A DNA stretch of 64,000 nucleotides from a virus. The position numbers and the translations under genes were made by a program. Below the pieces are notes generated by a model. It did not search any database, was not told the origin of the DNA, and saw nothing but the letters and a program-made list of their open reading frames with translations. The stretch spans positions 9,339 to 73,338 of the IMG/VR virus record IMGVR_UViG_2784746786_000001; one strand, 5' to 3'. Below, piece after piece: positions 8,972 through 48,570 of this stretch. The first letter of the stretch is position 1. Every line of letters begins with the position of its first letter.

Positions 8972-10304
8972 TTACCAGAAATATGCAATACGATACATCG
9001 AGGAGCATGAGGTCACAGCGCTTCTTCTGGACATGGGCCTCGGCAAGACGATTATCACGCTGACAGCCATTAATGACCTCATCAATGACAGCTTTGAAGT
9101 CAGGAAAGTGCTTATTATTGCACCACTTAGAGTGGCTAGAGACACGTGGCCTGCAGAAATCAAGAAATGGGAGCACCTTAGGCACCTGACTGCAGCCGTT
9201 GTTGTCGGCAGCTTGGCAGAGCGCAAAGCTGCGCTGTCCAAGAAGGCAGACCTATACATCATCAACCGGGAGAACGTCCAGTGGCTCATTGAGAAAAGCG
9301 GCTGTCGTTTTGACTTCGATATGGTGGTCATTGATGAGCTTTCGTCCTTCAAGAATCATCAGGCTAAGCGATTCAAGTCCTTGATGAAAAAGCGTCCTGG
9401 AATAAAGCGCATCGTTGGACTTACTGGCACACCAAGCTCCAATGGCTTGATGGATTTGTGGGCTGAGTTTCGCCTGTTGGATATGGGAGAGCGCCTGGGA
9501 AGATTCATCAGCCAGTATCGGAGCAACTACTTCAGGCCAGATAAGATGAACGGACAGGTCGTGTTTTCCTACAAGCTGCTGCCGGGAGCAGAGAAGCAGC
9601 TTTATGAGCGGATAGCAGACATCACCATCTCCATGAAATGCACGGATCATCTGGTGATGCCGGAGCTCATCAGCACAGAATGCCAAGTACAGCTCTCGGA
9701 TACAGAGCGCAAGCGATACGACGAGTTGAAGAAAGACCTCGTGCTGCAGCTACCGGATGGAGAGATTACCGCTGCCAATGCCGCAGCACTTACAGGAAAG
9801 CTGGTACAGATGGCCAACGGAGCAGTTTACAGCGATGATGGTAGCACGATGGAAATTCATGACCGCAAGCTTGATGCCTTGGAGGACTTGATTGAAGCCG
9901 CCAACGGCAAGCCTGTTCTTGTAGCGTATTGGTTCAAGCATGACCTAGAGCGCATCAAAGCAAGGTTCGATGTGCGAGAGATAAAAAGCACCGCTGACAT
10001 AGCCGACTGGAATGCGGAGAAGATTCCGGTGGCATTGATCCATCCGGCATCCGCTGGACATGGACTCAACCTGCAGGCTGGCGGCAGTACGCTTATCTGG
10101 TTTGGACTTACTTGGTCACTGGAGCTTTATCAGCAGACGAATGCCAGACTGTGGCGGCAGGGACAGACAGCAGAGACCGTGGTCATACAGCACATCGTGG
10201 CTAAGGATACCGTTGATGAACATATCATGAAAGCCCTGGCTAAGAAGAATACAACACAACGTGCTTTGATGGATGCCGTCGAAGCAGAATTGGAGGATAT
10301 ATGA
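8952..10304 (+). CDS. SNF2-family DEAD/DEAH-like helicase
   Basis: DMGLGKT, DELS, LTGTP, GHGLNLQ and QTNARLWRQGQ motifs. Confidence 0.92.
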   Translation: MIFKPHDYQKYAIRYIEEHEVTALLLDMGLGKTIITLTAINDLINDSFEVRKVLIIAPLRVARDTWPAEIKKWEHLRHLTAAVVVGSLAERKAALSKKADLYIINRENVQWLIEKSGCRFDFDMVVIDELSSFKNHQAKRFKSLMKKRPGIKRIVGLTGTPSSNGLMDLWAEFRLLDMGERLGRFISQYRSNYFRPDKMNGQVVFSYKLLPGAEKQLYERIADITISMKCTDHLVMPELISTECQVQLSDTERKRYDELKKDLVLQLPDGEITAANAAALTGKLVQMANGAVYSDDGSTMEIHDRKLDALEDLIEAANGKPVLVAYWFKHDLERIKARFDVREIKSTADIADWNAEKIPVALIHPASAGHGLNLQAGGSTLIWFGLTWSLELYQQTNARLWRQGQTAETVVIQHIVAKDTVDEHIMKALAKKNTTQRALMDAVEAELEDI

Positions 10305-37207: not shown

Positions 37208-37645
37208 ATGGTTTTATGGACAACTACAGAACTGAAGACAGGAACCCTATTCGGGCTACTGTGGGGGCTGCTGAATCTAATGCTGGGAGGCATTGATGCA
37301 CCGATACTTGCACTGAGCGGCCTGATCATGCTCGATTTCCTGACGGGCATTACAGCCGCCTATAAAAATGCAGAACTCAATTCCCGTACAGGAGCTGCCG
37401 GTCTTATGCGTAAGGCCGGTATCTTTGTCTGCATTATTATCGCCTATCTTCTGGACACTGCTACGGGGTTGATGATGTTTCGGGGAATGGTGATTACAGG
37501 CTTTGCCATCATTGAGGTCATGAGCCTGGTCGAGAACTTCGACCGCATGGGCTATGGCGAGATTATTCCCGTGTTTTTGCGGATACATCTGCAAAAGATT
37601 GCCGCTGAGAAGAACTTAAAAGTAAAGGAGTCTGATGACAAATGA
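37208..37645 (+). CDS. Holin (phage holin 4_1-like)
   Basis: Hydrophobic segments; LDFLTGI..A..S..G..G..RK...D; EVMSLVEN..RMG. Confidence 0.85.
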   Translation: MVLWTTTELKTGTLFGLLWGLLNLMLGGIDAPILALSGLIMLDFLTGITAAYKNAELNSRTGAAGLMRKAGIFVCIIIAYLLDTATGLMMFRGMVITGFAIIEVMSLVENFDRMGYGEIIPVFLRIHLQKIAAEKNLKVKESDDK

Positions 37646-38181
37646 AGATTTTTATCAATCCAGGGCATGCGCCAAACGGTCAGCCGGATCCAGGTGCCTG
37701 CAATAAATATACTGGGCTGCAGGAAAGTGAGGTGGCATTCTGTGTAGGTGAGAAGACAGCAGATTATCTTAATGCTGTCGGCATCGAGACGGAAAGTTTG
37801 CAGTCGGATAGTTTGGCGGAGGTATGTATTGCGGCAAATGCCAGCGGAGCAGATTTTTTTATTTCCGTCCATTGCAATAGCGCCAACACAACTTCCGCCA
37901 ATGGCACAGAAACCTGGGCATGCGCAGGCTCGGCTGAGGGAAGGAAGCTTGCCCAGTGCATCAATGACCAGATTGTTGACGCTCTTGGCACCACTGACCG
38001 CGGGGTGAAGATTGCCGCGCCAGGAATCAACGGCTTGTATGTTCTCAGCAATACAGATATGCCGGCGGTGCTCGTAGAGCTTGCTTTCATCTCGAATGCT
38101 GAGGATGTGGTGCTTCTTACCGAGCAGCAGGATGAGTTTGCCCGAGCCATTGCCCGTGGTGTGACGGATTATTTCAATTGA
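37642..38181 (+). CDS. Endolysin, N-acetylmuramoyl-L-alanine amidase, copy 2
   Basis: NPGH, ESE, SVHCN and LVELAF motifs; coupled to the holin. Confidence 0.9.
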   Translation: MKIFINPGHAPNGQPDPGACNKYTGLQESEVAFCVGEKTADYLNAVGIETESLQSDSLAEVCIAANASGADFFISVHCNSANTTSANGTETWACAGSAEGRKLAQCINDQIVDALGTTDRGVKIAAPGINGLYVLSNTDMPAVLVELAFISNAEDVVLLTEQQDEFARAIARGVTDYFN

Positions 38182-38191
38182 GGTGGTGGAC

Positions 38192-38563
38192 GTGAATGAT
38201 AGGACTAAAAAAATTCTGGTGGCTATTGTTGTTGCTGTTATTGTCTGTGCCGCAGCTTTCCTTTGCAGCCGAAGCAGAGCCGATGTACCAGATAACGGAA
38301 ACCGAGCTGATGACGCTCGAGAACAACTTGAACGAGCTAGACTCAATCAACAAGCAGCAGAAGGACAGCTTGATGAAGCTTCAGACACAGCTAAAGACCT
38401 CGGAGGAGAGATTACAGGCATCCGAGAAGAAGTCCATGAAGCTCGAATTACAGCTGACGGGATTAAAGAAGACAATGACCGAGCAGGACGGCTTATTACA
38501 GAATGCCGAGAAATCCTTGAACGAGTCCATCGCCGAGGAGAAAGCCAAGCAGGCGAGAACTAA
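38192..38563 (+). CDS. Candidate inner-membrane spanin-like protein (N-terminal TM plus coiled coil)
   Basis: GTG start (38183 or 38192) with GAGGTG RBS; KKILVAIVVAVIVCAAAFLC followed by a heptad-rich region. Confidence 0.6.
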   Translation: MNDRTKKILVAIVVAVIVCAAAFLCSRSRADVPDNGNRADDAREQLERARLNQQAAEGQLDEASDTAKDLGGEITGIREEVHEARITADGIKEDNDRAGRLITECREILERVHRRGESQAGEN

Positions 38564-38627
38564 GCGTGAGAGAAACTTAGCGTATGGAATTTTAGGAATC
38601 TTGCTGTACGCCTATATACAGAAATGA
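38196..38627 (+). CDS. Overlapping-frame partner: signal peptide, coiled coil, C-terminal hydrophobic anchor
   Basis: MIGLKKFWWLLLLLLLSVPQLSFA-AE; ends NLAYGILGILLYAYIQK; followed by a terminator. Confidence 0.6.
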   Translation: MIGLKKFWWLLLLLLLSVPQLSFAAEAEPMYQITETELMTLENNLNELDSINKQQKDSLMKLQTQLKTSEERLQASEKKSMKLELQLTGLKKTMTEQDGLLQNAEKSLNESIAEEKAKQARTKRERNLAYGILGILLYAYIQK

Positions 38628-38629
38628 TA

Positions 38630-38678
38630 ATGGCTCGTGCCTTGAGAAGTAAATTCTTGAGGTACGAGCCATATTTTT
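38630..38678 (+). terminator. Terminator of the lysis operon
   Basis: ATGGCTCGTGCCTT...AGGTACGAGCCAT stem followed by TTTTT. Confidence 0.8.
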
Positions 38679-38684
38679 ATTTAA

Positions 38685-39080
38685 GGAATTGCTGATAAAT
38701 CAACAGTTTCCAATCATTGATTTATCCACAAGTCGATTTTTGAAATTAACTTGCATTAAATTCATTAATCGATGCTTTGGGCACATCCATTCTCCGGCCT
38801 TTCTGATTTAGGGAGGTATTTCCCTAAATCTAGACAAACCTATCCAAGGACTGCACCAAATTCTTTCTGTCGTCCAGCCCTTATGCACAGTACCAGATTT
38901 GCTGAAGCAAACAACAGTTGAAACATCTGGTAGTTCTTTTTCAATCCACGGTATTTTGTTTTCCTGCATTTGAAAAAATTCTTTATGATGTGGAATGGAT
39001 GCTCTACTTTACAACGTATGGAAGATTTTTCATGCTCAATCAGTTTATCCCAGTTCATCCCTTCATAAATTTCTGTCAAG
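38685..39080 (-). mobile_element. IS5-family remnant (3' transposase fragment and right end)
   Basis: SSIRCKVEHPFHIIKNFFKCRKTKYRGLKKN; end sequence TTTATCAGCAATTCC next to TTAA. Confidence 0.75.
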
Positions 39081-39412
39081 TGATTCTGGGACGGACGCTT
39101 GGCAACGCGAAAATCTACGCAGTATGATCCGAAAATTCTTGGCAAAAATGGTATAGTCGACCCATTGTCGCTTGCTATAGCGTTGCAGGATTCAGCAGAT
39201 GAGAGAGTAGAGCAGGTAATCGACGAGATGTTGACGAAGGTTTTTGGGGGAAAAAATTAAGATGGTAGGTGGATTTACCAGATTTAAATAGTGGTTCAAG
39301 GGTTTTGAAGAAGAATGAGATTATTGATATGAAACAGCTCGGTTTGCGTGGGATGACAAAAGACGATGCGCTGCTAATATACAAAAAGTTGTACACACCT
39401 AGTATCGGATAG
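39081..39412 (+). pseudogene. Remnants of a probable type IV TA-like pair (regulator C-terminus plus internally deleted nucleotidyltransferase-like gene)
   Basis: YDPKILGKNGIVDPLSLAIALQDSADERVEQVIDEML*, then MVGGFTRFK*WFKGFEE joined out of frame to IDMKQLGLRGMTKDDAL. Family recognised from memory only. Confidence 0.4.
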
Positions 39413-40430: not shown

Positions 40431-41051
40431 ATGGAGAACGATGTGGCGATGGAACTAGATATTTTAAAGGAACGTTTGCGAGAAACTTTTGGTGATGATT
40501 CGCAAGAAATAGTGGGTGGAAAACTAAATATGACCCAGGGTAATGTGAGTAGATTGCTATCTGGCTCTCAACAGCCGACTCCGGATACGCTCTATCGAAT
40601 TGCCGAAGTATATGAGGTATCCATCGACTGGCTAATGGGGCTGTCAAATAATAAGAAAAGAGCCACAGCAAAAGAAAAAACTTCTTATGCTGTGGCAGTT
40701 GAAATGCTAATGCAGTTGTACCAGCATGGTAGTAATATTGAATTTAAGAGTTCTGGCTACGAGCTAAAGCTCAGTATTAAGGATCCGCTTTTAAAGGCCT
40801 TACTAAAAAAGAGCATTACACTCTCGAAAACTGACAAGGAGTTATACCAGAGCTGGAAAGAAATGAAGCTTTCTCTTTTTAATGATAAGTCGCTGGTTTA
40901 TCAAAAAATGTGGCAGGATAATGATGTTGGCTTTCTAGCAGGAGAAGCTACTGCAGAAGCACATTGGCTTGAAGTATATAATTTAGCAAAGGCTAAGGAA
41001 GCAGAATATGCTGAAATGATGGGCGATGCCCCTGGCCCGTTTGGAGGTTGA
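40431..41051 (+). CDS. XRE-family HTH protein 1
   Basis: SQEIVGGKLNMTQGNVSRLLSGSQQPTPDTLYRIAEVYEVSIDWLMG. Confidence 0.85.
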   Translation: MENDVAMELDILKERLRETFGDDSQEIVGGKLNMTQGNVSRLLSGSQQPTPDTLYRIAEVYEVSIDWLMGLSNNKKRATAKEKTSYAVAVEMLMQLYQHGSNIEFKSSGYELKLSIKDPLLKALLKKSITLSKTDKELYQSWKEMKLSLFNDKSLVYQKMWQDNDVGFLAGEATAEAHWLEVYNLAKAKEAEYAEMMGDAPGPFGG

Positions 41052-41055
41052 TATT

Positions 41056-41754
41056 TTGGATGATCTTAGACAAATAATAAAAGATCGCCTATCAAAAACC
41101 TTTAGCGGGAATACTCAGGAAGTGACTGCACGTAAGCTGAACACAACACAAGGAAATGTGAGTAAATGGGTTAACGGTACTCAGATTCCGACCCCAGATA
41201 TGCTGCTGGAAATTTCTAAAGCATATAAGGTCTCGGTGGACTGGTTGCTGGGTATCAGTGAACAACGAGAGATCGATGGTCTCGTTGTTGAAAAACTAAC
41301 ATATGAGCATATCGCGAGGGTTTTAGATAAACTGATTGAAAACAATACAATTGAAATACCAGATCTGGTTGTGATGGCGAACGAGAATGGCCTCAGTTCT
41401 ATTGCAGAAGATGATGTCGAAGATGAAGAAGAATCTATCACAAAGGAATCAGTATTCGATCCTGATTACATAAAAATTAAGGACCGACTGCTTTCCTACA
41501 TAATGCGAAGGCGTTATAAACTTGCATCAATTGATTTGGAAATGTTCGATGAGTGGAAGGAAAAACTGAATAATTTTCAGGGACTAAGGCTTCTTGCTTA
41601 TAACGAAAAAGTGGAAGCGGCAATCGATTATAAAAGTCCAGCGCAATTTAAAGATGGTGATTGGGTTGAACTGGTACGTTATTTATCGACAATGACAACA
41701 GAAGAGTTACATCAACTCGTAGAAGAATTAAAGAAAAAGGATGGGACAAACTAA
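41056..41754 (+). CDS. XRE-family HTH protein 2
   Basis: TQEVTARKLNTTQGNVSKWVNGTQIPTPDMLLEISKAYKVSVDWLLG; TTG start with GGAGG RBS. Confidence 0.85.
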   Translation: MDDLRQIIKDRLSKTFSGNTQEVTARKLNTTQGNVSKWVNGTQIPTPDMLLEISKAYKVSVDWLLGISEQREIDGLVVEKLTYEHIARVLDKLIENNTIEIPDLVVMANENGLSSIAEDDVEDEEESITKESVFDPDYIKIKDRLLSYIMRRRYKLASIDLEMFDEWKEKLNNFQGLRLLAYNEKVEAAIDYKSPAQFKDGDWVELVRYLSTMTTEELHQLVEELKKKDGTN

Positions 41755-43277
41755 TGGCAGAAAAGAATACAGCCGACATCGGTTTTGAAAAAGAAATATG
41801 GGATGCGGCCTGTGTACTTAGAGGAAATATGGATGCATCAGAATACAAGAACGTTATCCTTGGCCTTATTTTCTTAAAGTACATTTCCGATAGCTTTGAA
41901 AGTAGATACCAAGAGTTACTTAATGAAGGCGATGGGTTTGAGGAAGATAGAGATGAGTATACTTACAAGAATATTTTCTTTGTTCCAACAGGTGCTCGCT
42001 GGAAAGATATTGCAGATAAAGCGCATACTCCTGAAATTGGAACAACTATCGACAATGCAATGATTGCTATAGAATCTGAAAACAAAAAATTAAAAGGAAT
42101 TCTACCTAAGAATTTTGCTCGTCCCGAATTAGATAAGAGAAGACTAGGAGAAGTCGTTGATTTGTTCACCAATGTTCAAATGGCAGATGGTGCGGACGAG
42201 AAAGATTTACTTGGTAGAACTTATGAATATTGTCTTCGTAACTTTGCTGAACAGGAGGGGAAAAATGCTGGACAATTCTATACACCATCCTGTGTTGTAA
42301 GAACCATTGTTGAAATCCTACAGCCATTCAATGGTCGTGTATATGATCCTTGCTGTGGAGCTGGCGGTATGTTTGTTCAGTCTGCAGGGTTTGTAAAGAA
42401 TCATCAGGGTAATATTAATGACATTTCTGTTTATGGTCAGGAGTCAAATCCTACCACATGGAAGATGGCAAAGATGAATCTTGCAATAAGAGGAATAGAT
42501 TGTAATTTAGGTGAAATTCCAGACGATACCTTTTTAAATGACCAGCATCCAACAATGCGTGCCGATTTTGTGATGGCAAATCCACCATTCAATCTAACTC
42601 CTTGGGGAGCTGACAAATTAAAAGAGGATCAACGCTGGAAGTATGGAATGCCACCAGCAGGAAATGCCAACTTTGCATGGATTCAGCATATGATTTGGCA
42701 TTTATCACCAAACGGAAAGATGGGCATGGTCCTTGCAAATGGATCACTTTCATCTCAAACGGGTGGAGAGGGAGAAATTAGAAAAAATATCATTGATGCC
42801 AATCTTGTTGAATGCATCATTTCCCTTCCAGACAAATTATTCTACACGACTGGTATCCCAGTTAGCCTTTGGTTTATTAACAAAAATAAAAAGCATCAAG
42901 ATCAGACATTATTCATTGATGCACGAAATATGGGTACTATGGTAACTAGAGCTTTACGTGAGTTAACGGATGGTTCGGATGATCCTCAGAATAACGATAT
43001 AAAAAAGATTGCCGATACCTATGCAGCGTTTATTGAGGGGACTTTAGAAAACGTCTCTGGTTATTGTGCAGTGGTAACGACTGAGAAAATTGCCTCTCAG
43101 GATTATATACTTACACCAGGACGTTATGTTGGAATTGAAGAACAGGAAGACGACGGAGAGCCGTTTGATGAAAAGATGACGAGACTCACAGCTGAACTGT
43201 CAGGAATGTTTGAAAAATCCCATGAACTTGAGGCTGAGATTAAAAAGAAGCTGGGGGCAATTGGGTATGAAATATAA
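41754..43277 (+). CDS. hsdM: Type I R-M methyltransferase subunit
   Basis: LIFLKYISD, GQFYTP, DPCCGAGGMF, NPPF and LTPGRYVG motifs. Confidence 0.95.
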   Translation: MAEKNTADIGFEKEIWDAACVLRGNMDASEYKNVILGLIFLKYISDSFESRYQELLNEGDGFEEDRDEYTYKNIFFVPTGARWKDIADKAHTPEIGTTIDNAMIAIESENKKLKGILPKNFARPELDKRRLGEVVDLFTNVQMADGADEKDLLGRTYEYCLRNFAEQEGKNAGQFYTPSCVVRTIVEILQPFNGRVYDPCCGAGGMFVQSAGFVKNHQGNINDISVYGQESNPTTWKMAKMNLAIRGIDCNLGEIPDDTFLNDQHPTMRADFVMANPPFNLTPWGADKLKEDQRWKYGMPPAGNANFAWIQHMIWHLSPNGKMGMVLANGSLSSQTGGEGEIRKNIIDANLVECIISLPDKLFYTTGIPVSLWFINKNKKHQDQTLFIDARNMGTMVTRALRELTDGSDDPQNNDIKKIADTYAAFIEGTLENVSGYCAVVTTEKIASQDYILTPGRYVGIEEQEDDGEPFDEKMTRLTAELSGMFEKSHELEAEIKKKLGAIGYEI

Positions 43278-43307
43278 GCTTTCAGCTATTTGCCATTATG
43301 TAAAGGG
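43267..43307 (+). pseudogene. hsdS: 5' stub of an hsdS copy truncated at the IS3 junction
   Basis: ATG overlapping the hsdM end, MKYKLSAICHYVKG, then an abrupt switch to IS3 sequence. Confidence 0.5.
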
Positions 43308-43780
43308 TATGTTAGAGTAAACTACAAATGGAATTACGTGTGTGTGTTGGTAGATTTATTTAACCGTGAAATTATTGGTTATAGTGCTGGCGTGCATAAA
43401 AACGCTCAATTGGTATATGATGCCTTTGCAACAGTAAAAACAGATTTGCGAAAAATCCAAATGTTTCACTCGGACAGAGGAAGTGAGTTTAAAAATGAAT
43501 TGCTTGAAAAAGTAATCACTACATTTGAAATTAAACGATCTTTGAGTATGAAGGGGTGTCCGTATGACAATGCTGTTGCCGAGGCGACATTCAAAATATT
43601 TAAAACGGAATTTGTTTATGGACGCAATTTCGACAGTTTAAGCCAGTTGCGGTACGAATTAAAGAGTTATGTGAAATGGTTTAACAATAATAGAATTCAT
43701 GGATCATTAAATTATATGACTCCGGTGGAATTTAGAAAATTGACCTTATAAAAAGTGTCCGACAAAGTGTTGACAATCCA
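43308..43780 (+). mobile_element. IS3-family remnant (3' rve domain and right inverted repeat)
   Basis: YVCVLVDLFNREIIG, FHSDRGSEF, GCPYDNAVAE and NRIHGSLNYMTP motifs; ends ...GTGTTGACAATCCA. Confidence 0.88.
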
Positions 43781-44236
43781 GATCTTTTATCATCAACGGG
43801 TATGAGAGTTGGTGAGCTGGTTTTACTTAATCGAGAAGATATTGATTTCAATGAACGAGAATGCATTGTTCTAGGTAAAGGTGACAAAGAGCGAATAGTA
43901 TACTTCGATGCAAGGACTAAACTTCATCTGCAGGAATATTTGAAAAGCAGATCAGATACTAATCCGGCATTATTCGTTGGATTGAGAGCTCCGAATGAAC
44001 GACTTGAAATTGGTGGCGTTGAAGTCAGAATTCGTAAACTTGGAAGAAGTATTGGTATTAAGAAATGTCATCCTCATAAGTTCAGAAGAACGATGGCGAC
44101 AGTAGCAATAGACAAAGGAATGCCTATTGAGCAAGTGCAGAAGCTCTTAGGGCATGAGAAGATAGATACAACTCTTCACTATGCGATGGTGAAGCAGAGT
44201 AACGTTAAGAATGCACATAGAAAATATATTGGGTAG
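43781..44236 (+). pseudogene. Tyrosine recombinase of the hsdS locus, 5'-truncated
   Basis: STGMRVGE, GKGDKER, HPHKFRRT and LLGHEKIDTTLHY present; N-terminal domain missing at the IS end. Confidence 0.8.
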
Positions 44237-44241
44237 GTGAT

Positions 44242-45441
44242 TTGATGATAAATTGGAAAGAAACTAGAGTTGGCGATATTGGAAAAGTAATTACGGGAAA
44301 AACGCCTAAAACTAGTATAGATGAAAATTATGGTGGCGATATTCCATTTATAACTCCATCTGATGATATGACGACAAAATATATCTTCACTACAAATAAA
44401 AAATTAACCGAAATGGGTGCGCAATCAGTTAAAAATAATATAATACCTCCAAATACAATTTGTGTAAGTTGTATTGGTTCAGATTTAGGAAAAGTCGTTA
44501 TTTCAACTGAAACATCAGTAACAAATCAGCAAATAAACTCTATAGTTTTAAATGAAAATGAATATGATTTAGATTTTATATATTATGTTATGACAAGTTT
44601 AGGTAAAGTGATGAATCATCACAGTAAAACATCTACAGCAGTGCCGATTGTGAATAAAACCCAATTTTCAGATTATACTTTTATGTGTCCTGATTTGATT
44701 ACACAGAAAAAAATTGGTGGAGTACTCGCTAGTTTAGATGATAAAATTTCTAACAACAGATCGATAAATAGGAATTTAGCAGAGCAGGCAGCCACATTGT
44801 TTCAGGCGTGGTTCGTAAAATTCGAGCCTTATGGCGGGTCAATGCCTGATAACTGGTCTGAAGGCAATCTCGGGCAAATTGCTGAGCTTAAAACAAGAAG
44901 TTTTTCACCTGCAAAAAATCCTGACGTTACTCTTGAACATTACAGTATTCCGTCTTATGACGAGAAACATTTCCCAGTATTTGAGATTGCCTCTGGCGTA
45001 AAAAGTAACAAGTATGTTTTGACGCCATCCTCCGTAATGATTTCAAAACTGAATCCTGATACAAAGCGTATATGGAGACCTCTTTGCCTTACGAGCCATG
45101 CAGTGTGTTCTACTGAGTTCATGGTTTATGAAGCAATCAATCCAGAACATAAAGATTATGTTTATTCAATAATAGATGATCCTATGTTCAGTGCCTTTTT
45201 ATGTGCTCATACAACCGGTTCCACCAACAGTCGTCAGCGTGCTACGCCAAGCGTAACTTTGACTTATCCTGTTCTAATTCCGCCAGACGATGTAATAAAT
45301 GAATTCTGTTCTATTGTGTCGCCAATGTATGATCTCATAGGTGCTAACACTTTAGAAAATCAGAAGCTTGCAAACACTCGTGATTCTCTACTTCCAAAGT
45401 TGATGTCGGGAGAATTGAATGTCTCAGGAATAATATCTTAG
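44242..45441 (+). CDS. hsdS: Type I R-M specificity subunit (two TRDs)
   Basis: VITGKTP, TNQQINSI, LDDKISNNR..NLAEQA and RDSLLPKLMSGE motifs. Confidence 0.92.
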   Translation: MMINWKETRVGDIGKVITGKTPKTSIDENYGGDIPFITPSDDMTTKYIFTTNKKLTEMGAQSVKNNIIPPNTICVSCIGSDLGKVVISTETSVTNQQINSIVLNENEYDLDFIYYVMTSLGKVMNHHSKTSTAVPIVNKTQFSDYTFMCPDLITQKKIGGVLASLDDKISNNRSINRNLAEQAATLFQAWFVKFEPYGGSMPDNWSEGNLGQIAELKTRSFSPAKNPDVTLEHYSIPSYDEKHFPVFEIASGVKSNKYVLTPSSVMISKLNPDTKRIWRPLCLTSHAVCSTEFMVYEAINPEHKDYVYSIIDDPMFSAFLCAHTTGSTNSRQRATPSVTLTYPVLIPPDDVINEFCSIVSPMYDLIGANTLENQKLANTRDSLLPKLMSGELNVSGIIS

Positions 45442-45498
45442 GCCGCTAAATTCTTGTTTTTTATAAAATTTTAACGCCCTTAAGGAGGTGCATAAAGA

Positions 45499-48400
45499 AT
45501 GTCAGTTATTAATGAAGCCAGCTATGAAAACTCAATTATAGAATTATTCGAGAATATGGGTTACACATATGCCTATGGCCCAGAAGTGAATACAGACCAC
45601 CATAATCCTTTAAGGGCTGATGAACTTCGTAGCTCAATTGAAAGTATTAATCCCAAACTGCCATCGGTTGCTATTGATGAGGCGATACTAAAGCTTACAT
45701 CCTACGAGGCCGGTTCATTGGTGTCAAAAAACGCTGTGTTCATGGACTACTTGCAGAATGGCATCGAGGTTTCTTATCATCTAAATGGTGAAAGCATAAG
45801 TGCATTGGTGTATCTTGTTGACTTTAATAACGTGAATACAAATAGCTTTGTGGTTGCCAATCAATGGACCTTTGAGGAATATGAAACTAAGCGACCGGAT
45901 ATGGTTATCTTTCTAAATGGTATGCCGGTAGTTGTGATGGAACTTAAATCACCTAAAACTGATTCTGTAACAATCGAGGATGCTTATTTACAGATTAGAA
46001 ACTACATGAAGTCTATCGAGAGTTTCTTTATCTACAACGCATTCTGCGTAATCAGTGATCAATCTCAGACAAGAGCTGGTACAATTACTGCTAGTCTTGA
46101 CCGTTTTATGGAATGGAAAACGGTTGATGGAGATTATGAAGAAACGCGATATGCTGATTTCACAACTTTGATGAAAGGTATGTTTTCAAAGACTCGCTTC
46201 TTGGATATACTTCACAACTTCATTTGTTTTTCAAAAGAAGCAGGTGGAGATGCAAAAATTCTGGCGGCCTATCATCAGTATTTTGCAGTCAAGAAAGCTG
46301 TAGAATCTACCGCAAAAGCAAGTGCAGATGGTGGAGATGGACGAGGCGGTGTGTTCTGGCATACACAAGGCAGCGGAAAGTCACTGTCGATGGTGTTCTA
46401 TGCCAAGTTGCTACAAACTGCTTTGAACAGCCCGACCATCGTGGTTATTACAGATAGAAATGACTTAGATGACCAGTTGTTTTCACAGTTCTCCAAGTGT
46501 AAGGATTTTTTGAGACAGACTCCGGTTCAGGCCGAAAAAAGAAAGCTCTCAGAGGATGAAATCAAAAACGGCTCCAAGGCAATCGGATTGAAGGATTGGC
46601 TGGATGGTCGTGAGGCAAATGGAATCATCTTTACTACCATGCAGAAGTTTGAGGAATCAGATGATGCATTGAATGCAAGAAGAAATATTGTGGTAATGGC
46701 TGATGAGGCCCACCGAAGCCAGTATGGATTTGAGGAAAAGGTTAATGCTAAAACTGGTAAGATTACAATCGGTAATGCAAGAAGAGTACGAGATGCACTT
46801 CCAAATGCTACATATATTGGATTTACTGGAACACCGATCGAATTAGAAGATAGAAATACGCTTGAGGTGTTTGGTAACTATATTGACGTTTATGATATGA
46901 CCCAGGCCGTTGCGGATGGAGCGACCAGACCTATTTACTATGAAAGCCGAGTAATAAAGCTTGGACTTGATCCAAATACATTGCAGAATATTGATGCTCT
47001 TTATGAAAGTCTTAAGGGCCGTGCCAATGAAGTGGATATCGAAAAGAGCAAGCATGACCTGGCAAAGATGGACGGAGTGCTTGGAGCCCCAACGGTTGTG
47101 GATTCTCTTTGTGACGATATTATTAATCACTATGAAACTTACCGACAGTATGAACAAACGGGAAAAGCAATGATTGTAGCTTATTCTCGTCCAATGGCTA
47201 TCAAGATTTATGACAAGATGCTGAAGATGCGTCCAGAATGGAAAAACAAAGTAAAGATAGTCATGACTGGCGGCAATCAGGACCCAGAAGAATGGAAATC
47301 TTTGACTGGTAATAAAGCCTATCGTGAAGGCTTGGCTCGTGAGTTTAAGGATAACAATAGCGAATTCAAAATTGCCATTGTCATTGACATGTGGCTAACC
47401 GGATTTGATGTTCCTTCTATGTCTACAATGTATATCTTTAAGCCTATGAAGGGACATAACCTTATGCAGGCAATTGCTCGTGTAAACCGAGTATTCAAGG
47501 ATAAAGAGGGCGGCTTGATTGTTGATTACATAGGCATAGCATCTGCACTGAAAGCAGCTATGAAACAGTACACGGATCAGGACCGCAAGAACTATGGCAA
47601 TATGGATATCGGGGAAACTGCTTATAAGAAGTTCCAGGAAAAATTGCTCGTGTGCCATGACTTGATGTATGGATTTGATTATTCAGAGTTTATGACGACT
47701 GAAAGTGATTTGAAGAGAGCATCTTTAATCACCGGTGGTGTTAACTTCTTATCAGATCCTAAGATGGAAAGTACAAAGGAGGACTTCATCACTGAAGCGT
47801 ACCTGATGCGTCAATCGTTCTCTCTTTGTAAGAGTATTGCAACAGCAGAAGAAAGACGTGAAGAGGCTTATCTGGAAACAGTACGTTCTGTTTTAGTTAA
47901 GATTGAAAGACCGGGCCCTCTATCACTGAAGGATATCAATGCTCAGATTAACGAACTGCTAAAGCAGAGCGTTCAAAGTGGCGGTGTTGTGAATCTGTTT
48001 ACAGATGTGGATAAAGAGTTCAACCTATTCAATACCGCTTTCATGCAAGAAATTGCTAAAATGCCTGAGAAGAATCTGTCCATTGAACTTTTGAAAAAGC
48101 TGATTGCAGAACAGGTTCGACTTTACAAACGAACAAACGTAGTGAAGTCACAGCAGTTCTCAGAAATGCTGGATAGAATTGTAAAGTCCTACCTTAACGG
48201 TATGCTGACTAATGAGGAAGTCATCGGTGAGTTGATGAAGATGGCTCAGGATATGGCAGCAGCTCATGCTAGTGGAAATGCAATGGGTCTCTCGGATGAG
48301 GAGATTGCATTCTATGATGCGCTGACAAGGCCTGAGGCTGTAAAGGACTTTTATTCCAACGACCAGCTGATTGCAATAACGAGAGAGCTTACCGAACAAC

Positions 48401-48570
48401 TCAGACGTTCACGCACTGTTGACTGGGAAAAGAAAGAATCTGCCAGAGCAGGCATGAGACGAATGATTAAACGGCTTCTTAAAAAATATGATTATCCACC
48501 AGAGGGAATGGAGGATGCTTTACAAACAGTAATCAGCCAGTGCGAGATGTGGACGGATAATGTAAATTGA
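45499..48570 (+). CDS. hsdR: Type I R-M restriction subunit
   Basis: PDMVIFLNGMPVVVMELK, HTQGSGKS, DEAHRSQY, FTGTP and QAIARVNR motifs. Confidence 0.95.
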   Translation: MSVINEASYENSIIELFENMGYTYAYGPEVNTDHHNPLRADELRSSIESINPKLPSVAIDEAILKLTSYEAGSLVSKNAVFMDYLQNGIEVSYHLNGESISALVYLVDFNNVNTNSFVVANQWTFEEYETKRPDMVIFLNGMPVVVMELKSPKTDSVTIEDAYLQIRNYMKSIESFFIYNAFCVISDQSQTRAGTITASLDRFMEWKTVDGDYEETRYADFTTLMKGMFSKTRFLDILHNFICFSKEAGGDAKILAAYHQYFAVKKAVESTAKASADGGDGRGGVFWHTQGSGKSLSMVFYAKLLQTALNSPTIVVITDRNDLDDQLFSQFSKCKDFLRQTPVQAEKRKLSEDEIKNGSKAIGLKDWLDGREANGIIFTTMQKFEESDDALNARRNIVVMADEAHRSQYGFEEKVNAKTGKITIGNARRVRDALPNATYIGFTGTPIELEDRNTLEVFGNYIDVYDMTQAVADGATRPIYYESRVIKLGLDPNTLQNIDALYESLKGRANEVDIEKSKHDLAKMDGVLGAPTVVDSLCDDIINHYETYRQYEQTGKAMIVAYSRPMAIKIYDKMLKMRPEWKNKVKIVMTGGNQDPEEWKSLTGNKAYREGLAREFKDNNSEFKIAIVIDMWLTGFDVPSMSTMYIFKPMKGHNLMQAIARVNRVFKDKEGGLIVDYIGIASALKAAMKQYTDQDRKNYGNMDIGETAYKKFQEKLLVCHDLMYGFDYSEFMTTESDLKRASLITGGVNFLSDPKMESTKEDFITEAYLMRQSFSLCKSIATAEERREEAYLETVRSVLVKIERPGPLSLKDINAQINELLKQSVQSGGVVNLFTDVDKEFNLFNTAFMQEIAKMPEKNLSIELLKKLIAEQVRLYKRTNVVKSQQFSEMLDRIVKSYLNGMLTNEEVIGELMKMAQDMAAAHASGNAMGLSDEEIAFYDALTRPEAVKDFYSNDQLIAITRELTEQLRRSRTVDWEKKESARAGMRRMIKRLLKKYDYPPEGMEDALQTVISQCEMWTDNVN

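Follow-up and report, generated by a model that had tools for sequence, protein, structure and literature searches.

The window analysed here is a 64,000-nt stretch of viral DNA (positions 9,339 to 73,338 of the IMG/VR record IMGVR_UViG_2784746786_000001), and the subject of this work is a pair of overlapping open reading frames (ORFs) in it, named genes A and B. The + strand of the window holds a complete-looking prophage, with genes for a DUF2800/PD-(D/E)XK nuclease, a D5-type primase-helicase, the large terminase, the portal and the capsid, a 1244-aa ORF where the tape-measure gene usually sits, and a gene for a 2244-aa tail fibre. A lysis cassette is located at its end and runs from a holin gene through an Amidase_3 endolysin gene to the A/B pair and a terminator (Table 1). 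This cassette is probably the end of the prophage. No signal or signal-arrest-release domain was found in the window endolysin.

A preliminary description of this DNA had placed the pair after the holin and endolysin and ahead of a terminator, with two starts 4 nt apart behind one ribosome-binding site and an overlap of about 370 nt in different frames. All of this layout was confirmed. The two upstream genes belong to the PF05105 holin and Amidase_3 families, GTG 38192 and ATG 38196 both stand behind the Shine-Dalgarno (SD)-like stretch GAGGTGGTGG, and a strong terminator, made of a 19-bp stem with a T tract, follows the pair. The two proteins are encoded in one 430-nt stretch. Gene B is read in frame +2 relative to A (frame A+2), and the overlap is 368 nt, so that about 85% of A and nearly all of B are dual-coded. 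Frame A+2 is open from 38183 to 38563 and contains two other in-frame GTGs at 38183 and 38186; GTG 38192, 4 nt ahead of A's ATG, is most likely the start of B.

Table 1. Features of the lysis cassette and of proteins A and B (positions in the window)
Feature	Position (nt)	Strand	Basis or remark
Holin, 145 aa, first lysis-cassette gene	37208..37645	+	Pfam PF05105 Phage_holin_4_1, E = 9.4e-23; PHROG 199 holin
Endolysin, N-acetylmuramoyl-L-alanine amidase, 179 aa	37642..38181	+	Pfam PF01520 Amidase_3, E = 1.4e-38; PHROG 435 endolysin
Single SD-like stretch GAGGTGGTGG for both A and B starts	38180..38189	+	Sequence; shares nucleotides with the endolysin stop codon
Gene B, 123 aa from GTG 38192, frame A+2	38192..38563	+	ORF, AlphaFold2, relatives
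B transmembrane helix, aa 8-25	38213..38266	+	Preceded by a short K-rich N-terminus
Gene A, 143 aa from ATG	38196..38627	+	ORF, AlphaFold2, homologous clusters
A signal peptide, aa 1-24	38196..38267	+	K-rich n-region, Leu-rich h-region, site SFA/AE
A coiled-coil rod, aa 25-127, including polybasic stretch aa 116-126	38268..38576	+	Sequence
A hydrophobic tail, aa 128-143 (16 residues)	38577..38624	+	Sequence
Intrinsic terminator closing the lysis operon	38630..38682	+	19-bp stem (8 GC pairs), 5-nt loop, then ATTTTTATTT

Protein A has three elements, which agree with the type I signal peptide, coiled coil and hydrophobic tail assigned to it before. The cleavage site SFA/AE (the slash marks the cut) satisfies the (-3,-1) rule and is of the signal peptidase I type. 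It is followed by the conserved mature N-terminus EPMYQITETEL, and AlphaFold2 predicted one long helix for residues 35-142 (pLDDT 85), which includes the tail. The homologous clusters of A numbered 34, down to 48% identity, and an exhaustive profile search gave 445 clusters at E <= 1e-10. Within the family, the signal peptides end in (-3,-1) sites such as VQA/E, SFA/A and IQA/E, and the mature N-terminus, E-[AP]-[MT]-Y-Q-I-[ST]-E-x-E-L-x-x-L-E-x-N-L, is the best-conserved block. The tail consists of 14-17 hydrophobic residues, mostly with K or R at the end. It is preceded by a polybasic collar, in which the 16 residues ahead of the tail hold 5.9 K/R on average, and 121 of 141 family representatives carry a Q-R-N-like motif in the collar. 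A canonical lipobox was present in only 5 of the 141 representatives, and the signal peptide of the window A contains no Cys.

The length of the A rod is not continuous in the family. In 120 of the 124 sequences, the conserved Tyr and the Q-R-N motif are separated by 73, 80, 87, 94, 101, 108 or 115 residues. These distances are quantised in heptads, which indicates that the rod length changes by whole heptads only. Public names given to A homologues, such as 'peptidase M24' (MBE6105316.1, Anaerovibrio lipolyticus) and 'chromosome segregation ATPase' (JGI), are unsupported.

Protein B is the ORF described earlier as an N-terminal transmembrane (TM) segment plus a coiled coil, and AlphaFold2 reproduced this with helices at residues 3-30 (TM) and 38-122 (pLDDT 70). 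The periplasmic, heptad-patterned helix covers aa 26-123 and ends in the conserved motif I-L-x-x-V-x-x-R-G. In all members of the B family, a short basic N-terminus leads into the TM helix, and R-x-D-V-[SP]-D, an Ala-rich helix and a C-terminal I-[LI]-x-x-V-R-x-R-G come after it. The TM segment scores 2.2-3.3 on the Kyte-Doolittle scale, and its hydropathy exceeds the mean of the synonymous-shuffle null in 25 of 25 loci. From these models, B is predicted to have an i-spanin-like topology, as a type II inner-membrane protein with a periplasmic part of about 95 residues. Neither VIVC nor AFLC in the window B matches the lipobox [LVI][ASTVI][GAS]C, and B as a lipoprotein was rejected, the Cys ahead of R-x-DVSD being missing in some lineages. 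Thus the earlier statement that neither ORF has a canonical lipobox holds for both proteins. In four loci (L090, L092, L094 and L096; genomes G519, G538, G660 and G705), frame B was observed to stop at an offset of -11 to +4 relative to A's stop. It ends in a Ser/Thr/Asn-rich tail, and this looks like a variant B with a C-terminal extension over the DNA for A's tail.

Loci were fetched from genomes, viral contigs and metagenomes, and frame A+2 was open in every homologous locus examined (>60, to about 30% identity). It was open over at least 105 codons in 38 of 38 loci with A's N-terminal motif, in 5 of 5 further divergent members from the exhaustive profile search, and likewise in L040-L043 and L046. 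In the 35 complete loci, the B-frame stop lies 61-79 nt ahead of A's stop, just before the DNA for A's hydrophobic tail. In a class-wide genome search whose hits were sampled from strong to weak, frame A+2 was open in 30 of 30 loci; the B stop was 34-106 nt before A's in 26 of them and at or just past A's in the other 4. Frame A+1 was always closed in the loci examined, never reaching more than 51 codons. In all 25 distinct lineages a single SD stands ahead of both starts, which are 2-16 nt from each other and occur in arrangements such as RTGNATG (e.g. RTGAATG), ATGTATG, ATGTG and TTGTG. Where gene calls are listed, a single frame was called per locus, which was A in 34 clusters and B on its own in 5 clusters.

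Synonymous codon shuffling of A gave P = 0.10 for the open B frame in the window alone, which is not significant, and P = 0-0.10 per locus for 25 distinct sequences. Across the relatives, with B open throughout and A+1 closed, the signal is overwhelming. When divergent pairs were aligned on A (mean identity 0.37), the frame-B identity was 0.30 versus 0.17 for the null of independent synonymous shuffling (mean z 4.0). When pairs were aligned on B (0.35), the frame-A identity was 0.40 versus 0.24 (mean z 4.75). In contrast, the same cross-frame test on the adjacent, single-coding endolysins gave z values of only -0.8 to +1.6. The excess was observed in all four quarters of the overlap and in both directions, although the pooled z of this quarter test overstates significance because the pairs are not independent. 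A frameshift fusion was therefore rejected, since it would leave constraint in each frame only before or only after the shift site.

The substitution pattern is consistent with these results. The three codon positions of A took 27/30/44% of the substitutions in the overlap; the corresponding shares were 25/18/58% for the A-only tail and 26/20/54% for the endolysins. The A-only tail thus shows the normal pattern dominated by the third position. The dS of A in the overlap was 0.08-0.50, which in most close pairs is below that of the A-only tail and of the neighbouring endolysin. The naive omega was 0.2-0.65 for A and 0.3-1.5 for B, the latter being uninformative because the synonymous sites of B are the second codon positions of A. 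The selection on both frames that the preliminary description had asked to be checked is thus seen in the cross-frame identity, the reduced dS, the flattened codon-position spectrum and the paired starts. On these sequence comparisons, it is very probable that both frames encode proteins, and we infer that both are translated.

Most of the conserved blocks of the two proteins coincide. At 38268-38330 and the homologous positions, the best-conserved block of A, E-P-M-Y-Q-I-T-E, and the best-conserved N-terminal block of B, R-x-D-V-P-D, are encoded by the same nucleotides, and where B alternates between S and P, the Tyr codon of A changes synonymously between TAT and TAC. This coincidence could mean a contact of matching parts, or merely reflect the shared DNA. 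The two proteins also share a register. Both A and B have a strong hydrophobic periodicity of 3.5 residues, the two are in the same phase over the codons they share, and the shared periodicity exceeds the mean of the synonymous-shuffle null in 25 of 25 loci (P <= 0.05 in 19 of 25).

The pair is linked to lysis genes. It abuts or overlaps the 3' end of the endolysin gene with a gap of -20 to +13 nt, and four unrelated endolysin families, Amidase_3, Amidase_2, GH25 and Glucosaminidase, were found upstream of it. It also occurs in differing phage backbones, a T7-like one included. The position beside four unrelated endolysin families supports a lysis role, because such modular linkage is expected of a lysis gene. 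In the T7-like element (L066:2384-5457, with Phage_T7_tail and a T7-type terminase, in a 630-kb scaffold), the order is Amidase_2, A/B pair, small and large terminase. The T7 spanin genes 18.5/18.7 lie at about the same position. At one locus (L029:2703-2945) the gene just upstream of the pair encodes, in place of an endolysin, an 81-aa coiled-coil protein. Its C-terminus has a hydrophobic segment, it matches DUF7201 weakly, and it may be a holin-like protein or a third lysis component.

The host of the prophage is a diderm Firmicute, as had been proposed. It belongs to the Selenomonadaceae, the same family as Anaerovibrio lipolyticus LB2005, and its genome (100% complete) contains LpxC and Omp85/BamA and no LolA. 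Five further carrier genomes are LpxC-positive and LolA-negative too. Neither LolA nor LolB occurs in any Negativicutes genome (Antunes et al. 2016, PMC5007114), and the lack of a lipobox in A fits the host for this reason; a lipoprotein o-spanin that relied on Lol could not be sorted in a host without LolA.

Whether homologues are restricted to diderm hosts was one of the checks named in the preliminary description, and the family was found only in LpxC-positive genomes. All named genome matches are Negativicutes (Anaerovibrio, Acidaminococcaceae, Dialister and Veillonellaceae). In a sample of this class, 107 of 401 genomes (27%) and 43 of 110 genera matched at E <= 1e-8, often in multiple copies. 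Several Negativicutes genomes carry 3-4 copies of the pair (four matches each in G028, G462, G556 and G724), presumably one per prophage. In a phylum sample of 401 genomes, 86 of which are LpxC-positive, matches at this threshold were found only in the window's own genome and in G386, both LpxC-positive and LolA-negative; the pair was found in none of the 315 LpxC-negative genomes. Weaker phylum matches to the A profile (E above 1e-7) were partial. Most of them fell within far longer open frames, and they were set aside as generic coiled coil. With A and B relatives as queries, a tblastn search of 50,697 phage records gave no match.

Taken together, we propose that the A/B pair is the spanin equivalent of Negativicutes phages, which would breach the outer membrane after the holin and the endolysin have acted. 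We give this reading a probability of about 0.6. The preliminary description had suggested an outer-membrane disruption device of a different topology from Rz/Rz1. The computation supports this proposal, and neither conservation of one frame only nor a monoderm host was found; the disruption of the outer membrane itself is inferred from these data.

In the proposed mechanism, B would be anchored in the inner membrane by its N-terminal TM helix, and A would be exported and freed from the inner membrane by signal peptidase I. The two proteins may then form a coiled-coil assembly that spans the periplasm. Their helices would run in the same N-to-C direction with the heptads in phase, which makes a parallel, in-register bundle possible with one anchor at each end, and such a rod would be about 11-17 nm long. 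The polybasic-hydrophobic tail of A may engage the inner leaflet of the outer membrane. After the endolysin has cleared the peptidoglycan, the assembly would disrupt the outer membrane or fuse it with the inner membrane. The pair would thus take over the job of Rz/Rz1 with no need for a lipoprotein, in hosts that have no Lol route for sorting one to the outer membrane. Because the DNA is shared, the insertion or deletion of a heptad lengthens or shortens A and B equally, and the shared SD would set the A:B ratio and the site of synthesis. The most specific form of the proposal is a class-wide spanin system of diderm Firmicutes, not recognised before, that consists of a two-anchor, in-register A/B rod, with the TM domain (TMD) of B in the inner membrane and the tail of A in the outer membrane, which implies lipoprotein- and Lol-independent targeting and membrane fusion. 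It is tentative, and we consider it possible but doubtful.

Several observations weigh against a spanin function. Part of the hydrophobic N-terminus and heptad pattern of B is a genetic-code by-product of A's sequence, and the null means for B TM hydropathy and heptad periodicity are already high. There is no charge complementarity between the A and B rods, and this feature was not used as evidence; no conserved periplasmic Cys pair was found in the A or B family. The polybasic stretch is on the periplasmic side of the A tail, and the tail may reach the outer membrane or may instead remain in the inner one. Similarity to the Rz families is weak and carried by the composition of TM plus coiled coil, with NCBIfam matches far below their cut-offs. 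Envelope type is confounded with phylogeny in the taxonomic restriction, and outside the Negativicutes the pair was found in only 1 of about 73 LpxC-positive genomes. The interval between lysis and lysogeny genes is also where lysogenic-conversion genes occur, and in Firmicute-type prophages accessory genes often lie between the lysin gene and the lysogeny module (bioRxiv 10.1101/606087).

This last point bears on an alternative in which both genes are real but serve another function at the end of the late operon, such as antiholin-like control of holin timing, superinfection exclusion, or a membrane pair for lysogenic conversion. A and B are small membrane-anchored coiled coils without a catalytic domain, which fits this alternative. 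However, the pair keeps close to the 3' end of endolysin genes from four unrelated families, and a terminator comes after it. It is present in 27% of the genomes of a diderm class versus 0 of 315 LpxC-negative genomes, while no link to envelope type exists for holin regulators or exclusion proteins. A rod that is quantised in heptads and conserved at its ends also suggests a structure that spans a distance. We therefore regard another function as unlikely, though as the strongest of the alternatives.

In a second alternative, A is the sole effector. It would act as a unimolecular spanin-like protein whose tail is an inner-membrane stop-transfer segment and whose conserved free N-terminus contacts the outer membrane or OmpM, with B in an accessory or regulatory role at the inner membrane. 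In a variant of this reading, A and B are antiparallel partners and the inner membrane holds both anchors. An N-terminal export signal combined with a C-terminal hydrophobic segment is found in T1 gp11 (PMC6139136), the mature N-terminus of A is the best-conserved block of the family, and the constraint on A is stronger than that on B by naive omega. On the other hand, A has no lipobox to hold the outer membrane, and its N-terminal motif is acidic and polar rather than membrane-active. The tail is short, with the polybasic cluster before it and not after it, which is atypical for a stop-transfer anchor, and B is conserved in every lineage. This alternative appears slightly less likely than a different function of both genes.

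It is very improbable that only A is a gene and that B is an accidental open frame of purine-rich, T-poor coiled-coil codons or the target of a programmed frameshift: the non-significant openness in the window alone, the tendency of Leu-rich, E/K/Q-rich coding to give hydrophobic and then stop-free alternative frames (hence the high null means) and a naive dN/dS of B near 1 would fit it, but B is open in every locus and A+1 never, the B start beside A's and the position of the B stop are conserved, the B-frame identity is nearly twice the shuffle null in all four quarters with no excess in the controls, and the dS of A is suppressed in the overlap only.

The pair is a concrete candidate for how phages of diderm Firmicutes pass the outer membrane. 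Classical spanins rely on a lipoprotein that Lol sorts, and Lol is missing from these hosts. Members of these bacteria, such as Veillonella, Selenomonas, Megasphaera and Dialister, are abundant in the gut, mouth and rumen, and the candidate, which is present in about a quarter of the sampled Negativicutes genomes, makes the question testable. Should A reach the outer membrane via its C-terminal tail, this would point to a lipoprotein-independent route of outer-membrane targeting in these bacteria. The locus is also a case of extreme dual coding, in which two frames that begin in a common start region cover almost an entire gene, and the arrangement is kept over class-level divergence with the coiled-coil registers in phase. 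To our knowledge, A/B is among the most extensive conserved dual-coding arrangements in phages. It further marks a blind spot of annotation, since gene callers give one frame of two and the public names are wrong.

Two regions beyond the cassette were observed in the window. Short broken ORFs on both strands lie right after the terminator at 38689-39160, including a 101-aa minus-strand ORF at 38840-39145. A type I restriction-modification locus occupies 41026-48570, with HsdM at 41754-43277 and a 1023-aa ORF at 45499-48570.

The exit through two membranes is stated as a requirement in a survey of 485 Negativicutes prophages, which does not mention spanins (bioRxiv 10.1101/606087), and no relevant literature linking spanins with Negativicutes genera or diderm Firmicutes was found. 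At the level of protein families, Pfam gave no match for B to a known i-spanin family, and sequence searches of Pfam, NCBIfam and the PDB gave only generic coiled-coil or sub-cut-off matches. Two Rz-like families were matched by B members but not by the window B, PHROG 89 by 7 of 24 (best E = 9.7e-8) and PHROG 214 by 7 of 24 (best 3e-6). A relatives also match PHROG 214, which indicates similarity of architecture and not proven homology. One B relative reached 22 bits against TIGR03495 LysB, whose cut-off is 92.75. The Ala-rich periplasmic heptad helix of B resembles the alanine-zipper lipoproteins Lpp/OprI, and B matched NF040598 with E = 4.8e-5 and 23.8 bits, below the cut-off of 43, and is not a member. 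Unlike Lpp/OprI, B is phage-encoded, has no lipobox and carries an N-terminal TM anchor.

Three layouts are possible for the two spanin genes, namely embedded, overlapped and separated (Kongari et al. 2018, PMC6139136). Like lambda Rz/Rz1 and P2 LysB/LysC, the A/B pair comes last among the lysis genes of a phage whose host is diderm and shares its DNA in different frames, and B resembles an Rz-type i-spanin in its N-terminal TMD (predicted N-in, C-out) and periplasmic coiled coil. In contrast to an o-spanin, A is not a small proline-rich lipoprotein. It lacks the lipobox that defines an o-spanin, and it has a long coiled coil, a signal of the signal peptidase I type and a C-terminal polybasic-hydrophobic tail. 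The gene arrangement differs too. In a typical embedded pair, the o-spanin gene starts at about 0.4-0.5 of the i-spanin length, whereas A and B start together behind one SD and overlap almost fully. The pair also differs from classical two-component spanins in the lack of a conserved periplasmic Cys pair and in hosts without LolA/LolB.

A unimolecular spanin consists of a lipoprotein signal and a C-terminal TMD (PMC6139136). A resembles T1 gp11 of this type in its export signal, its C-terminal hydrophobic segment and its position at the end of the lysis cassette; unlike T1 gp11, it has no lipobox, its periplasmic domain is helical and not beta, and a second gene is always co-encoded. As in other out-of-frame overlapping pairs of phages and viruses, two proteins are encoded by one DNA with purifying selection on both frames. 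Unlike those pairs, A and B share one SD for their starts, are kept across a bacterial class and have heptads in phase in both frames. The functional kind proposed here, the spanin, is already known, while protein A and the A/B gene architecture are unlike any described spanin.

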